A stretch of 64,000 nucleotides of DNA from Bacteroidota bacterium (GTDB taxonomy: Bacteria; Bacteroidota; Bacteroidia; Bacteroidales; WCHB1-69): contig JAGDMF010000002.1 in assembly GCA_017860455.1 (NCBI GenBank), positions 51,814 through 115,813 on the forward strand. Direction: 5' to 3'. Below, one piece after another: positions 22,394-48,393 of the stretch. Under the pieces are notes generated by a model. It did no database searches. It had not been told where the DNA came from and was given only the letters and a program-made list of their open reading frames with translations. A program made the position numbers and the translations under genes. How positions within the stretch are numbered: position 1 is the stretch's first letter; each line of letters begins with the position of its first letter.

Positions 22394-22470
22394 CCCCAGA
22401 ACTTTCATCTATTCCAAACTTAGTCAGTTCAGTCATATATTTTTACCCCAGAGAACTCAAAGATTAATTA

Positions 22471-22845
22471 CCACAGTGGACTCAGTGGTTATTTACCACA
22501 GTGAACTCAGTGGTTATCTACCACAGTGAACTCGGTGGTTATCTACCACAGTGGACTCAGTGGTTTTCTACCACAGTGGACTCAGTGGTTATCTAGCACA
22601 GTGGACTCAGTGGTTATCTACCACAGTGGACTCAGTGGTTATCTACCACAGTGGACTCAGTGGTTATCTACCACAGTGAACTCGGTGGTTATCTACCACA
22701 GTGAACTCGGTGGTTATCTACCACAGTGAACTCGGTGGTTATCTACCACAGTGGACTCAGTGGTTATCTACCACAGTGGACTCAGTGGTTTTCTACCACA
22801 GTGGACTCAGTGGTTATTTACCACAGTGAACTCAGTGGTTATCTT
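22471..22845 (+). repeat. Tandem array of 15 x 25 bp (ccacagtggactcagtggttatcta)
   Basis: Exact 25-bp period from 22471 to 22821 with few variants (gg/ga, a/g); no unique spacers. Confidence 0.95.
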
Positions 22846-23357: not shown

Positions 23358-23580
23358 ATCTCAGTGTCCTCTGTGGTAAAAATCTCAGTGTCCTCTGTGG
23401 TAAAAATACTTTGGGTTCTCTGGGGTAGTAACTATCAGGGTTCTCTGTGGTAAAAATCTCAGTGTCCTCAGCGGTAAAAACACTTTGTGCTCTCTGTGGT
23501 AAAAGCACTTTGGGTTCTCTGGGGTAGTAACTATCAGGGTTCTCTGTGGTAAAAACACTTTGGGTACTCTGGGGTAAAAA
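23358..23580 (-). repeat. Tandem array of 9 x 24-25 bp (ctcagtgtcctctgtggtaaaa / ctttgggttctctggggta), inverted relative to the upstream array
   Basis: Reverse complement accacagaggacactgag aligns with the upstream unit accacagtggactcagtg. Confidence 0.88.
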
Positions 23581-23604
23581 CGAATTAATTTAAAAAAAAT
23601 AATT

Positions 23605-43530: not shown

Positions 43531-44910
43531 TTACTGAACCAACTGATTCAATATTGGGATAATTTCTTTCGTAGAGGGTCTGGGTGCTGTTGCATCTATA
43601 AAGTTTCCATTTGCATCTATTAACATAAATGTTGGGATACTTATCAATTGAAATTTTTCTACCAGTTTAGGATCCCATCCGGTATGAGTTCTCAAATGAA
43701 CGATTGATTTTTCATTTTGAGTCATTTTTTTCCATTCATCAAATTTGTCAGGATCGTCCAAAGAGAGAGAAATAAAGACAATCTCTTTATTTTTATATTG
43801 CTTAGATAACTCCACAAAATAGGGTTTCTCCTCTTTACATGGGGTGCACCAGGTTGCCCAAAAATCAAGATAGATCACTTTACCTTTAAAATCACTTAAA
43901 TGGACCTCTTTATCATTGGTATCATAACAAGTAAAATCAAAAGCAGGTTTACCTTTAGCTAAATCCATCTTTTTGTTTAACATTAATTTAATCTGATCTC
44001 TGTAAGTATCATTTTTAAGTTCCTTTTCATAAGTTGATCTACACAACTCGAAACCTTCTAAACCTTCGTATTCAATCACCTGTTTGATGGCAGAAAAGTA
44101 CAAATACTCTTTTATTTTAACATTTTCAAATGTACTGATCACTTTTAGTTTCTTTGTAATCCAAACTTCCGGTTTTGCCTTGATGGTATCATTCATATCC
44201 ACTAACTGATCATTCAATAATTTTTCAGTATAATACTGTATAAACATTCTAAAATCCGGAATAGCCAAATATTGGGCATTATCTAATTCTAACGAATCAA
44301 TAAAATTATAAAAGCGGGGATCATCAATACCATTTTGCAAACCTAAAATGAGTTTAAGTGTAGCAGCCTTAAATTTACAATATTTGTTTTGAAAATTAAC
44401 AAAATTGGGATCCAGGTTTTTACCTTTGATCATTTTCTCAAAAGAGCTACTAAATTGATTAAAAATGGAATCTATATAAGTTATAATTTGATTTTTATCA
44501 ATTTTATCTAAGTATTCATAATCTATCTGATCAATTGATTGCATTATATTTTGCAACATATTATTCTCAATTTCACCTTTTCCGGAAAATTCAATTATTG
44601 GGGTATCCAAATTTTCAGGGAATGTTGTTTTGATATTCAAATCATAGTTAGGACCCAGAAAAATTTGTTTCATTTGATTTCCAACAACTAAAACATAATA
44701 TCCTGCATTTTCCATTTCAATTTTTTGAGAAAACTTGCCATTCGTGACTTTAATTGTATCCAAATGATCGTGTATGATTTGGTCTCCAAAAAGCACTACC
44801 GTACTATCGTTACCCTCGATTGTACCGCTAATTGTGGCGGTTTCGGGGCTACAAGAATTAAAAATAAGGATGAAAACAACAATAAAAAGGTAAAAAAGGT
44901 TTTTTTTCAT
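43531..44910 (-). CDS. TlpA/redoxin-family thiol-disulfide oxidoreductase lipoprotein
   Basis: Lipobox FNSC; LSDFKGK..YLDFWATWCTPC, IP.F.LID, APRPS. Confidence 0.9.
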   Translation of the reverse strand: MKKNLFYLFIVVFILIFNSCSPETATISGTIEGNDSTVVLFGDQIIHDHLDTIKVTNGKFSQKIEMENAGYYVLVVGNQMKQIFLGPNYDLNIKTTFPENLDTPIIEFSGKGEIENNMLQNIMQSIDQIDYEYLDKIDKNQIITYIDSIFNQFSSSFEKMIKGKNLDPNFVNFQNKYCKFKAATLKLILGLQNGIDDPRFYNFIDSLELDNAQYLAIPDFRMFIQYYTEKLLNDQLVDMNDTIKAKPEVWITKKLKVISTFENVKIKEYLYFSAIKQVIEYEGLEGFELCRSTYEKELKNDTYRDQIKLMLNKKMDLAKGKPAFDFTCYDTNDKEVHLSDFKGKVIYLDFWATWCTPCKEEKPYFVELSKQYKNKEIVFISLSLDDPDKFDEWKKMTQNEKSIVHLRTHTGWDPKLVEKFQLISIPTFMLIDANGNFIDATAPRPSTKEIIPILNQLVQ

Positions 44911-44956: not shown

Positions 44957-46123
44957 TTATTTTCTAAAATCTGCAATCTCTTTAATGGCCTGGATAGCAG
45001 CATCAACATGGTTTTCCAATGTAAAAGGTCCAATGCTTAATCTTACGGTTCCATGAATTAGATCTGTTCCTAAATGTTGATGAACAAAAGGAGCACACTG
45101 TAATCCTGTTCTACAAGCAATATTGTAATCAACATCTAACATAGTTCCCACATCACCTGATTCAAAACCATTTACATTTAAACTCAAAACAGGATTTTTA
45201 TTTTCTCTGTTTACGGCACAATAAGTGGTCACGTTTTCAATTTTTTGAATTTCAGAACGCATTTTGTCCCATAAATCCATCTCTTTACGATGTAAATTCT
45301 CAATTCCTTGTTCTGTAATCCATTTTACACCAGCATGTAATCCGGCAACTCCTAAAAGGTTAAGTGTTCCACACTCTAATCTGTATGGAAATTCCGTTAA
45401 ATGAGATCTTTGAGCAGAACGAACACCTGTTCCACCAAAACGAGTAGATTTTACAGGAACATCTTTCATTACATAAGAACCCCCAATTCCGGTAGGTCCC
45501 ATCAAACATTTATGTCCTGTAAAAGCAAAAGCATCGATACCCATAGCTTGCATATCCACTTTCACAGCACCGGCACTTTGGCTGCCATCAACAATAAACA
45601 AAATTCCGGCTTCTTTACAAATTTTTCCAACTTCGCCTACGGGTTGAACAGTTCCCAATACATTAGAACAATGGTTCATTACAACTATTCGGGTATTTTT
45701 CTTAATTCTCTTTTTGATATCATCAGGATCAATATAACCGGTTATTTTATCAAAAGGCACATAATCAACTTCAATTATTCCATCTTGCTCCAAATGATAA
45801 AGTGGTCTTAAAACAGAATTGTGTTCTACCATCGTTGAAATCACATGATCCCCTTTTTGAGCTAAACCATAGATTAACATGTTTAATGAATCACTAGCAT
45901 TATAACTGAAAGTCAAGCGATTAGGATCCCCATCTCCGTTAAAAAGTTCCATTAACATTCTTCTGGTTTGGGCAACCATCTCTTCCGTTTCAATAGCTGC
46001 ATCAAAACCTGTTCTTCCGGGACTAACCCCTTTAGTTCTGTAGAAGTTCATCATGAAATCATACACATCATCCGGTTTTGGGAACGATGTTGCAGAGTTG
46101 TCTAAATATATTAAATTGTTCAT
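44957..46123 (-). CDS. Cysteine desulfurase family protein (class V PLP enzyme, SufS/CsdA-like)
   Basis: YLDNSATSFPKP, EHNSV.RP, DGSQSAG, FTGHK (PLP Lys), RTGLQCAP (catalytic Cys); likely ATG at 46123. Confidence 0.92.
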   Translation of the reverse strand: MNNLIYLDNSATSFPKPDDVYDFMMNFYRTKGVSPGRTGFDAAIETEEMVAQTRRMLMELFNGDGDPNRLTFSYNASDSLNMLIYGLAQKGDHVISTMVEHNSVLRPLYHLEQDGIIEVDYVPFDKITGYIDPDDIKKRIKKNTRIVVMNHCSNVLGTVQPVGEVGKICKEAGILFIVDGSQSAGAVKVDMQAMGIDAFAFTGHKCLMGPTGIGGSYVMKDVPVKSTRFGGTGVRSAQRSHLTEFPYRLECGTLNLLGVAGLHAGVKWITEQGIENLHRKEMDLWDKMRSEIQKIENVTTYCAVNRENKNPVLSLNVNGFESGDVGTMLDVDYNIACRTGLQCAPFVHQHLGTDLIHGTVRLSIGPFTLENHVDAAIQAIKEIADFRK

Positions 46124-46145
46124 GTTATAAAAAATTATTGTTTTT

Positions 46146-47441
46146 CTAATCAAGGACTAAAGCATCAGCTACAATCTCAGCTAATGTTTTAATTTGTACG
46201 TTTAATTTGTAATAAGAGTTTAATTGAGTTAATTGGTCCACGCAATTGTGGCAGGGTGTAACCACAATCTGAGCTCCGGTATTTCTGATCTGATCAGCTT
46301 TCAATTTACCGGTTTTCATTCTTCTCTCATTGTATTCACTCATAGCCAACTGGCCGCCGCCACCACCACAGCAATAGTTGTCAATTCCATGTGGGGTCAT
46401 CTCTACAAAATCGGTTACAGTTTGAGATAACACATATCTTTGTTCTTCAACAATCCCACCGTTTCTCACTAAATTACAAGGATCGTGAAGCGTAACTTTC
46501 TGTTTTATAATATTTTTATTCACTTTTATACGACCACTTTTAATATAATCTGCTAAAAGTTCGATGGAGGTTCTGATATTAAAATTAAAATGGATTTTCA
46601 AATAATTTGGAGCTTCCCAGCGGAATGCACGATCACCATGCCCACACTCAGCCAAAATTAATTCTTTAGCGCCCAGTTTTTCCATCTCATTCATCATCCG
46701 GTGTGCAATGATACTGGCTTCAGCTAAATTTCCGCTAAAAAAAGCGTAGTTGGTTACATCATACATTTCAGTGGAGATAGTCCAACTCTCTTTAGCAGCA
46801 TGAAACACTTTAGCCATTGCAGAAATAGAAAGCGGAAAGAATTTGGGTTCCCGTGGATTGAGGGTGTACATCACATTTTTATCGGGTTGATTCAGTGGAA
46901 TAGAGGCGGTAGTGTCATTTAACTCATCCTGAAGATCCTCTTCCAACCACTGAATGGTATCCACAAACTCATCATAAGTGATTCCCATATTATTGCCGGT
47001 AGAAAGTGCAGCATTAACTGTTGATTGTAAAGTTGCAGGCACGAAACCCATTTCAGATAACATCATTCTGCCTGTTCGAACTAAAAAAGCAATATCCAGA
47101 CCAATAGAACAGTGAATATTACAACGGCTACACATGGTACAGGCGCCAAAAAACTTATCAACCATTTCAGGAATTAAATCATCATTCAATGATCTTGCTC
47201 CGGTAATTGCTGGAAATGTTTTTCCTAAAAATGTAAAATAGCGACGATAAATTGAGGCTAAAAGATCCACTTTGTTTGCTGGTGTGAGGGTTGGATCCTG
47301 ATCAGCTAAAAAGTAAATACAACTGGTTGAACACAATCCGCAATGCACACAACTATTGAGATGAGTCAGCAGCTTACTATTGTCCAAATTATTAAGTATA
47401 TCTAAACCTCTATCAATTTGATTTTGAGATAATGTAATCAT
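46146..47441 (-). CDS. DsrK/TmcB/HdrD-like Fe-S protein (two [4Fe-4S] motifs plus a CCG domain)
   Basis: CVHCGLCSTSC and CTMCSRCNIHC; TLNPREP; ECGH; HDPCN...CCGGGGG...PCHNC. Confidence 0.88.
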   Translation of the reverse strand: MITLSQNQIDRGLDILNNLDNSKLLTHLNSCVHCGLCSTSCIYFLADQDPTLTPANKVDLLASIYRRYFTFLGKTFPAITGARSLNDDLIPEMVDKFFGACTMCSRCNIHCSIGLDIAFLVRTGRMMLSEMGFVPATLQSTVNAALSTGNNMGITYDEFVDTIQWLEEDLQDELNDTTASIPLNQPDKNVMYTLNPREPKFFPLSISAMAKVFHAAKESWTISTEMYDVTNYAFFSGNLAEASIIAHRMMNEMEKLGAKELILAECGHGDRAFRWEAPNYLKIHFNFNIRTSIELLADYIKSGRIKVNKNIIKQKVTLHDPCNLVRNGGIVEEQRYVLSQTVTDFVEMTPHGIDNYCCGGGGGQLAMSEYNERRMKTGKLKADQIRNTGAQIVVTPCHNCVDQLTQLNSYYKLNVQIKTLAEIVADALVLD

Positions 47442-48064
47442 ATTTTAATGTTTTTTGGAGGCCAGGTTCCTCTCCAACCGTAAAAAAATCCTAAATGAAA
47501 GCGCGCAAAGAAAAAATAAACAACATGTTTTAATTTTCCGATTGGGATATAAATGAGTAAAATGGAACTCCATAGAAAATAGAACATTGGAATATCAAAA
47601 TGGAGCATTCCAATAGTCAAGATTTGAAACCCTGTAACTAAAAGGTTCGAAATATAATCATCAGGATTAGAAATCTCTTTTTGAACTTTATTAAACAAAC
47701 GTGCTACTAAAATGATTGCACCACAAATAGAAGTTATGGCTAAGCCTCCTGTTAGTCCCCAAACGAAAAAGGGCTCAGTGATATAGAATCCTGCTAAATG
47801 AATAAAAAACACTAAAACGGAAACAAAAGCACCGATATGAAATAATATGCCGGCACTATATTCAGGAAGATGTAAATAAGCAGATTCTTTGTGCGCAGGA
47901 TGCATTGCTCCTGTGAAAGAATATGGGATTGCTTTGGAAAGATCTCCGGCAGATTTTGAGTAATCTTTTGGTTTACCAAGTCGAATCAAGCGTATCAGAT
48001 GGAATAGACAACCTGAGATACAAATGATAAGTGCAAAAATTGCAACAATAATGTACCAACTCAT
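47438..48064 (-). CDS. DsrM/NarI-like integral membrane subunit (cytochrome b family)
   Basis: About five TM helices, FHIG, R......IS.PDDY, GKLKH motifs; overlaps the Fe-S gene start. Confidence 0.7.
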   Translation of the reverse strand: MSWYIIVAIFALIICISGCLFHLIRLIRLGKPKDYSKSAGDLSKAIPYSFTGAMHPAHKESAYLHLPEYSAGILFHIGAFVSVLVFFIHLAGFYITEPFFVWGLTGGLAITSICGAIILVARLFNKVQKEISNPDDYISNLLVTGFQILTIGMLHFDIPMFYFLWSSILLIYIPIGKLKHVVYFFFARFHLGFFYGWRGTWPPKNIKI

Positions 48065-48075
48065 AATGGGAACGA

Positions 48076-48393
48076 TTAAACGCAGCCGTCAGGTTTGGGT
48101 AACCCTGCAACTCTACACGCACCACGAGCAGGTCCTAATGGAAAAAGCTCATAAATTTCACGTAATTTAACACCTGTATCTTGACAAATACTACGAATCA
48201 TTGGGGCATTCCCTTTCTCTTCAAAGTTTCTGCGAATAAATCTCACAATTGCCCAATGTTTGTCTGTTAATTCAGTAAGTCCATCGTATTTAGCAAATAG
48301 TTGTGCTACCTCTTCATTCCAAATTTCAGGAGTTGCTAAAAAGCCATCTCCATCCACTTCGAATACTCTACCATCGATTTCTAATGTTGCCAT
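48076..48393 (-). CDS. DsrC/TusE-family sulfur-relay protein with both C-terminal cysteines
   Basis: VDGDGFL..PE.WNEEVA, LT..HW.IV.F.R, LFP.GP..GACRVAGLPKPDGCV; ATG at 48393. Confidence 0.93.
   Translation of the reverse strand: MATLEIDGRVFEVDGDGFLATPEIWNEEVAQLFAKYDGLTELTDKHWAIVRFIRRNFEEKGNAPMIRSICQDTGVKLREIYELFPLGPARGACRVAGLPKPDGCV

Follow-up and report, generated by a model that had tools for sequence, protein, structure and literature searches.

A conserved DsrC module with a dedicated cysteine desulfurase-family enzyme and a predicted one-heme membrane anchor in bacteria lacking DsrAB

The two-cysteine sulfur carrier DsrC and its membrane partner DsrMK are usually regarded as parts of DsrAB metabolism, in which DsrMK or DsrMKJOP acts as a menaquinol:DsrC-trisulfide oxidoreductase (PMC10861901; bioRxiv 10.64898/2026.08.25.746951). 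DsrMK has been reported in some assemblies without DsrAB (PMC10504309), two-cysteine DsrC without DsrAB has been called exceptional (PMC3397948), and marker tools treat such genes without DsrAB as false positives (PMC8477390). Here we analyse a four-gene operon that bears on the possible existence of DsrC-DsrMK apart from DsrAB. It lies in a 64,000-nucleotide stretch of a Bacteroidota bacterium (WCHB1-69; assembly GCA_017860455.1, contig JAGDMF010000002.1, positions 51,814 to 115,813), referred to as the window, and encodes a DsrC-family protein, a membrane protein, a DsrK-like iron-sulfur (Fe-S) protein and a cysteine desulfurase-family enzyme. The cassette proves to be genuine and conserved: a DsrC module that is independent of DsrAB, has its own dedicated desulfurase and is assembled from known parts. 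As to its function, we propose, with a probability of about 0.5, that the unit turns cysteine into alanine and H2S without a proton redox loop, cysteine serving as an electron sink.

The cassette resembles several described systems and departs from each of them. Like the Dsr system it combines a CX10C DsrC with a NarI-fold membrane partner, and its Fe-S protein has the DsrK-type pair of ferredoxin motifs, single CCG domain and ECGH cysteine and histidine. Unlike DsrMKJOP, however, it has neither DsrAB nor DsrJOP and includes a co-inherited, dedicated desulfurase; it has one heme histidine pair, its last cluster ligand is Cys rather than Asp, and its DsrC tail reads KPD/EGC rather than KPTGC, with C93 lost in one clade. 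The TmcBC and HmcEF proteins of Desulfovibrio-type Tmc and Hmc complexes, which also have one CCG domain and the ECGH motif, give the best NCBIfam scores (HmcF 297, TmcB 293, TmcC 26 and HmcE 25 bits), but these are far below the respective cut-offs of 750, 735, 240 and 275 bits, periplasmic cytochrome genes are not among the recurrent neighbours of the cassette, and its hosts are not sulfate reducers. Mycobacterial EtfD/EMO (PDB 9ojn; PMC13083937) likewise has a NarI-type domain, a single proximal heme b and a CCG Fe-S domain, but EtfD is one fused, ETF-fed chain with no sulfur carrier, whereas the cassette subunits are separate and keep the DsrK catalytic ECGH cysteine. The IscS-TusA-TusBCD-TusE-MnmA relay of E. 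coli has a DsrC-family carrier supplied by a cysteine desulfurase; the cassette differs in having a two-cysteine carrier, a TIGR01977 enzyme in place of IscS, a membrane redox pair and no evident TusBCD. Finally, SclA (EF2568) of Enterococcus faecalis belongs to the same subfamily (TIGR01977) of class V pyridoxal phosphate (PLP) enzymes, but the cassette enzyme is below the SclA cut-off, falls in a separate, dsrC-tied clade and does not require selD. Our literature search, which did not extend to the main DsrC review (Venceslau 2014) or to supplements, returned no description of the four-gene set, and none is given in the available parts of PMC10504309, PMC8477390, PMC10579422, PMC9774590, bioRxiv 10.1101/197269, bioRxiv 10.64898/2026.08.18.745454 or bioRxiv 10.1101/2020.02.07.939272.

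The strongest evidence that the four genes belong together comes from their inheritance. A scan of one genome per species returned 370 relatives of the Fe-S protein, of which the best 80 loci (61-97% identity) were kept; all but three are from Bacteroidota and Ignavibacteria metagenome-assembled genomes, and a best-match sample of this kind favours similar loci. An initial annotation of the operon, made from its sequence, had raised the question of conserved four-gene synteny, and the order is intact in 75 of these 80 loci, the other five ending near the match. We also searched 60 relatives with each of the four genes and based the tally on the 48 with a completeness of 90% or more. The full set is present in 24 of these and entirely absent from the other 24, so that the desulfurase is indeed conserved with the other three. 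Matches excluded from this tally as lying outside the clade were a 380-bit desulfurase (G508), weak DsrC-family matches (G475, G501) and a second DsrC-family copy (G509), while the three discordant relatives are 57-86% complete. Kin among the relatives are not independent observations; the losses are spread over several genera, and the genus of the window itself has two genomes affected (G452, G455). This all-or-none pattern is not due to linkage, since the genes lie at two or three places among unrelated neighbours in 17 of the 24 carriers and the operon is unbroken in 7 (in G468 and G485, the split may be a short insertion at a contig break). In another genome, G491 (82% complete), the desulfurase gene directly precedes dsrC and the membrane/Fe-S pair is elsewhere. 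We conclude that the four genes are one functional unit.

The unit is patchily distributed. The Fe-S gene occurs in 26 of the 36 genomes of the window's family and the membrane gene in 3 of 400 near-complete genomes of the phylum; among these three, the dedicated desulfurase (>700 bits) is found only in the one that also has DsrC (two TIGR01977-like matches in the phylum sample, of 365 and 298 bits, were placed outside the desulfurase clade). Active-site residues are invariant across carriers. Further afield, a profile search with the membrane protein alone returned 460 clusters, and Chloroflexota, Planctomycetota and Marinimicrobia are among the named members. A distant sub-alignment led to 80 metagenome loci; dsrC lies upstream in 52 of the 57 with enough flank, and in 26 of 31 the desulfurase gene follows downstream, encoded on the other strand; Aminicenantes and Zixibacteria proteins are among the DsrC clusters of these loci. 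Below, window-like loci are termed type I (77 DsrC rows compared) and the distant loci type II (64 DsrC copies). A third form has the order dsrE2-tusA-membrane-Fe-S (L091:7094-9983 and L092; G250, G330). Both of its genomes are 99% complete and have neither DsrC nor the dedicated desulfurase, with dsrE2-tusA in front instead; carrier and donor therefore appear to have been exchanged together.

The absence of DsrAB, first noted at the operon itself, was borne out by genome searches. We found dsrA in none of the 26 family carriers, most of them more than 90% complete and one of them, from the same genus, a single-contig assembly with 97% completeness; the positive control for this search, the dsrAB-bearing genome G410, scored 588 bits. 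It was also not found in 5 further carriers, where there was one weak match of 55 bits, nor in 48 of the 50 carriers drawn from the 80-locus set (which overlaps partly with the other dsrA set), and the window genome (G000, 65% complete) has no PF01077 match. These searches covered carriers of type I loci, genomes of the Aminicenantes/Zixibacteria type (type II) being outside the sample. One of the two exceptions, G041, has dsrAB inside a block of ~62% GC on a contig of ~40% GC, and this dsrAB is probably foreign DNA. The other, G043, has a dsrA fragment with its own, separate KPTGC-type dsrC beside it. Taken together, the unit may occur alongside Dsr but is not dependent on it. The jump from ~40% to ~62% GC in G041 occurs just ahead of dsrAB, near position 1,010,000 of contig C9 (L084, L085), and suggests a chimeric contig in this Ignavibacteriota assembly.

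In the window, the four genes are minus-strand open reading frames spanning 44957-48393 (Table 1), as tightly packed as initially described: in gene order, they are separated by 11 nt, a 4-nt overlap and 22 nt. The motifs reported for them were also recovered, namely both C-terminal cysteines of DsrC (C93 and C104, in GACRVAGLPKPDGCV), two ferredoxin motifs and one C-terminal CCG domain in the Fe-S protein, the FH and KLKH histidines of the membrane protein (H76 and H180, with Tyr162 exactly 18 residues ahead of H180), and the PLP lysine and catalytic cysteine of the desulfurase (Lys205 and Cys343). Promoter and terminator scans gave signals no stronger than in shuffled sequence, and the Bacteroidota promoter pattern is unmatched upstream of dsrC, with 3 matches elsewhere against 6.5 expected. 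The TlpA-like thioredoxin gene downstream (43531-44910) was considered as a member of the set and rejected, as it trails the operon in 2 of the 80 loci.

Table 1. The four genes of the cassette in the window.
Feature	Coordinates	Strand	Remarks
dsrC-family sulfur carrier	48076..48393	-	105 aa
NarI-fold membrane anchor	47438..48064	-	208 aa; predicted one proximal heme b (H76, H180)
DsrK/TmcB/HmcF-like Fe-S protein	46146..47441	-	431 aa; a pair of ferredoxin motifs, a single CCG (non-cubane cluster) domain and C266 of the ECGH motif
PLP cysteine desulfurase-family enzyme (TIGR01977)	44957..46123	-	388 aa counted from ATG; K205, C343, extra conserved C302

The desulfurase passes the TIGR01977 model (409 bits, cut-off 377) and is below the cut-offs of the SclA (305 vs 525), SufS (242 vs 475) and IscS models. 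K205 and C343 are conserved among its relatives, and a homologue search with the desulfurase alignment showed such enzymes to be abundant, with 7,683 of 8,000 candidates at E<=1e-100. Window-type and opposite-strand copies form one clade in a quick tree (Shimodaira-Hasegawa-like approximate likelihood ratio support of 95, with long-branch outgroups), and against the type I profile the type II enzymes reach 590-645 bits. Distinct genes of the SufS-like and IscS-like kinds, and two copies of mnmA, are present elsewhere in the genome. Overall, the data support a dedicated enzyme whose association with the other three genes persists where linkage is lost. Desulfurases take sulfur from cysteine as an enzyme-bound persulfide, leaving alanine. 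The suggestion that the desulfurase takes the place of DsrAB as sulfur donor gains from the absence of DsrAB and from co-inheritance with the other three genes; the donation itself would be a step of the mechanism proposed below.

The carrier is a bona fide member of its family, scoring above cut-off on PF04358 (117 bits, cut-off 24.9) and TIGR03342 (98 bits). It is below the cut-off of the TusE model NF008562 (64 vs 191 bits) and has two C-terminal cysteines, not a single one; its best solved relatives are the Dsr-linked DsrC chains 2xsj_C, 1ji8_A and 2v4j_C. While C70, C93 and C104 are kept in all 77 type I rows and the terminal C104 is universal among the copies compared, C93 is replaced by Ala in 8 of the 64 type II copies, two of which still adjoin the desulfurase gene. 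The tail reads KPDGCV in the window, KPDGC in all 141 type I and type II copies and KPEGC in 5 of 30 family copies, as against KPTGC in the three solved chains (KPTGCV in the DsrAB-linked type). We rejected Cys70 as a cassette-specific mark, as it is invariant (141/141) yet also present in the DsrC of the dsrAB-bearing G410, and monophyly of the cassette DsrC is unsupported, the quick tree requiring two changes with weak support. Treatment of A. vinosum DsrC with IscS in the presence of cysteine, or with sulfide, yielded a persulfide on the terminal cysteine only (PMC3397948, in which a figure legend lumps the two treatments), and a Cys103Ala variant of DsrC still supported growth (bioRxiv 10.64898/2026.08.25.746951). 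The initial annotation had cast the loaded carrier as a DsrC per- or trisulfide. The two-cysteine carrier on which this relied is present, but a trisulfide need not form, and a persulfide on Cys104 is the better fit because C93 is Ala in those 8 distant copies.

The Fe-S protein has its ferredoxin motifs at C31/34/37/41 and C101/104/107/111 and its CCG domain (PF02754) at residues 316-404, with C322, C357, C358, C397 and C400. It also has an ECGH cysteine, C266, that the earlier reading missed; together with the ferredoxin motifs and the CCG domain, this gives the full DsrK-type motif set as defined in PMC10861901. This cysteine marks DsrK, TmcB and HmcF (PMC10861901), and its DsrK counterpart, Cys329, is the proposed sulfur relay (bioRxiv 10.64898/2026.08.25.746951). 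The cluster cysteines, C266 and H268 are invariant over 80-81 rows. As with HmcF and TmcB, the score on the DsrK model NF045796 is below cut-off (257 vs 400 bits), although this cut-off is strict, in that the DsrK-like protein of G410, with which the cassette protein is 33% identical, also fails it at 275 bits. EtfD is the sole sequence match in the PDB (E 7e-13).

The membrane protein has no Pfam match, no sequence match in the PDB and only weak matches to the TmcC and HmcE profiles. Its predicted structure (predicted local distance difference test score 91.7) has NarI as the top fold (Foldseek E 0.02, template modelling score 0.44; VIA Z 10.7, root-mean-square deviation 6.0, 166 aligned) and one-heme EtfD as the second-best in VIA (Z 9.9, root-mean-square deviation 3.7, 191 aligned). 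These scores are moderate for a helical bundle and are backed by the weak profile matches, and we assign the model a NarI-type fold. Across 105 diverse sequences, H76 is present in 105 and H180 in 103, while the positions of the distal heme pair are hydrophobic, position 162 being F, L, Y, W or M. By comparison, the DsrM-like protein of G410 has a His 18 residues ahead of its last His. Tyr162 was rejected as a heme ligand, as distant members mostly have Phe or Leu there and there is no conserved partner His. His89 of the window protein is common to just 4 of 79 rows; His65 is conserved in 97 of 105 and was assigned no role. From its ligands, then, the membrane subunit is predicted to be a one-heme protein that keeps the proximal His pair, and not a two-heme DsrM. 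The quinol site of NarI and DsrM-1 is located at the periplasmic heme (bioRxiv 10.64898/2026.08.25.746951), and the complete loss of the distal site makes both such a quinol site and a redox loop unlikely. Membrane-linked respiration in the sense of DsrMK, as initially put forward, is accordingly unsupported. In EtfD, menaquinone sits 4-5 Å from the single proximal heme of the NarI-type domain (PMC13083937), and a one-heme domain of the EtfD type has been read as being in exchange with menaquinone 'without energetic coupling' (bioRxiv 10.64898/2026.08.18.745454). In three cases (G488:C68:334974-335666, G503:C19:10211-10830 and L067), the membrane gene is in two pieces and the other three genes are apparently intact, which is either an assembly error or a real split.

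From what is known of these families, the unit may work as follows. The desulfurase would load cysteine sulfur as a persulfide on Cys104 of DsrC, whose arm would dock on the Fe-S subunit, with relay through C266 and reduction at the non-cubane cluster. Where C93 is present, a C93-C104 disulfide could close with release of HS-, to be reduced in turn by the same enzyme. Electrons would reach the DsrK-like subunit through the single membrane heme, probably from quinol, this direction and donor being the weakest part of the scheme. As the only heme is on the cytoplasmic side, the reduction step would move no charge; energy might instead be conserved upstream, for example at Na+-NQR, which is present in the window's genus, with cysteine as a Stickland-type electron acceptor. 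A bolder form of this proposal, which we hold only tentatively, is a widespread cysteine respiration of fermentative Bacteroidota, Ignavibacteria, Aminicenantes and Zixibacteria, in which cysteine would be the terminal electron acceptor and a DsrC cycle, supplied by a desulfurase in place of DsrAB, would couple Na+-NQR to H2S release.

The energetics are compatible with the overall reaction. The Cys/Ala+HS- couple is estimated to lie at about -106 mV under standard conditions and about -17 mV at 1 mM sulfide, the latter above menaquinol at about -70 mV, so that quinol could drive it. In a near-complete genome of the same genus (G454, 97%), NqrA and cytochrome bd are present together with a MenA-like gene. 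A b558-type anchor for fumarate reductase was not found in it, and it may thus lack an ordinary anaerobic quinol sink.

A number of findings nevertheless weigh against cysteine reduction by quinol, in addition to the dsrA fragment of G043, and the electron donor is its weakest point, a quinone system being evident in only part of the carriers. NqrA was found in 10 of 24 carriers, and also in relatives without the set (G452, G455 and others). MenA was above cut-off in 10 of 22 carriers, and in 6 of the 22 both Na+-NQR and a clear MenA are missing; in G463 (99% complete) MenA gave no match at all, MenB was below cut-off or absent in all five carriers checked, and in the window's genus the sole candidate is a MenA-like gene scoring 51-67 bits (cut-off 102). 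The membrane subunit is without the periplasmic heme where NarI and DsrM-1 oxidise quinol, and its one-heme precedent, EtfD, runs towards quinone (PMC13083937). The persulfide step from menaquinol is near equilibrium or uphill (an estimated -42 to -127 mV over the non-standard cases tried); it leaves no energy for a redox loop, which fits the loss of the distal heme. Lastly, SclA, a characterised enzyme of this family neighbourhood, prefers selenocysteine (bioRxiv 10.1101/2020.02.07.939272). As a separate observation, the MenA-like protein of the genus is divergent and encoded by its sole UbiA-family gene (L199:1459-3353 in G001), which overlaps a gene for a 297-aa protein that by eye resembles a radical SAM enzyme.

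The alternative that survives best, though we consider it unlikely, is an anabolic sulfur relay, in which the desulfurase and DsrC would feed a cofactor, cluster or tRNA reaction and the membrane/Fe-S pair would only reset or tune the DsrC thiols. The DsrC homologue TusE has such a role in E. coli (PMC3397948), the set persists in genomes of 1.8-2.4 Mb, in some of which no quinone system is clear, one clade does without C93 and the dsrE2-tusA variant exists. However, no acceptor gene accompanies the set in the 80 + 80 + 38 loci compared, the housekeeping desulfurase-like genes and both mnmA copies are already present elsewhere, and no TusBCD is evident, the single DsrE-family match, in G001, being a weak one of 27 bits. 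Half of the near-complete relatives do without the set, and a heme-bearing membrane subunit exceeds what a relay needs.

The unit could also run in the oxidative direction, passing electrons from DsrC thiols or persulfide at the non-cubane cluster through heme and menaquinone to cytochrome bd, in an sHdr-like disposal of sulfur or thiols. We regard this as rather improbable, even though one-heme EtfD operates this way, thiol-to-menaquinone transfer is downhill, cytochrome bd was found in all five carriers tested, and genes for a type III Sqr, DsrE2, TusA and a single-cysteine DsrC neighbour the cassette in some loci. Each of these sulfur neighbours occurs in at most 9 of the 80 loci, no DsrAB or other sulfite-forming or sulfite-removing partner was seen, the DsrC is closest to reductive-type chains, and the host has fermentative enzymes (PFOR-like and hydrogenase-like open reading frames, read by eye). 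With regard to sHdr itself, the window genome, at 65% completeness, has two CCG matches, neither of them HdrB; this comparison did not extend to lipoate-binding genes.

Selenium handling, with the PLP enzyme as a selenocysteine lyase and the module moving or reducing selenium, is far less probable. It is prompted by the selenocysteine specificity of SclA (bioRxiv 10.1101/2020.02.07.939272), by the 305 bits of the desulfurase on the SclA model (NF040779, against a cut-off of 525) and by a selD score above cut-off in 36 of 50 carriers. The other 14, among them the single-contig genome of the window's genus (G001), have no selD, which makes selenium unlikely as a core role, and the annotated recurrent neighbours include no selenium gene, bar an Sqr fragment in 4 loci that resembles a selenoprotein subtype. 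That the set assists, or is left over from, dissimilatory sulfite reduction whose dsrAB went undetected or disappeared recently is largely refuted and highly improbable: the incompleteness of the window genome and the dsrA matches in 2 of 50 carriers would allow it, but dsrA is in none of the 26 family carriers, active-site residues are invariant, and the two matches are the probably foreign dsrAB of G041 and the dsrA of G043 with its own KPTGC-type dsrC.

Several genes recur beside the cassette. A protein of ~82 aa with five conserved cysteines is encoded directly upstream of dsrC in 39 of the 80 type I loci (e.g. L069:4764-5012); it has no Pfam or NCBIfam match, its Atlas matches are Bacteroidota clusters, and neither the window genome nor the type II loci have it. 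Flanking the cassette in 24 of the 80 loci (e.g. L035:3274-4749; also L137) is a gene for a second class V PLP enzyme, ~490 aa long and bearing a GCxCAG motif, which was not found in the window genome. A Crp/Fnr regulator gene adjoins the cassette in 17 of the 80 loci, and in L032, L040, L046 and L079 a type III sqr-DUF1641-single-Cys dsrC-dsrE2 operon with a Crp/Fnr regulator lies beside it. An operon of the HdrA/QmoC-like type adjoins the cassette in 8 of the 80 loci (L012, L015, L022, L028, L032, L046, L052 and L070), and the dsrAB-free window genome has such an operon, dsrE2-tusA-mvhD-hdrA(GltD-like fusion)-hdrA-qmoC-like, at G000:C34:25559-33016 (L187). We considered this module (dsrE2-tusA-mvhD-hdrA-hdrA-qmoC-like) as an obligatory electron partner and rejected it, because the query used recovered the QmoC-like gene in 2 of the 24 carriers as against 6 of the 24 non-carriers. 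Elsewhere in the window, an intergenic region carries 15 tandem copies of a 25-bp unit (22469-22844, 94% matches), with a degenerate array related to it close by (23358-23581), and there are many intergenic arrays with units of 7-8 bp.

If the proposed reaction is correct, a DsrAB-free, cysteine-fed DsrC cycle would constitute a new entry into DsrC chemistry, and may represent an unrecognised source of H2S and an electron sink in anaerobic amino-acid fermenters. Should cysteine respiration also prove to be true, this source of sulfide would be invisible to dsrAB surveys of guts, digesters and sediments.

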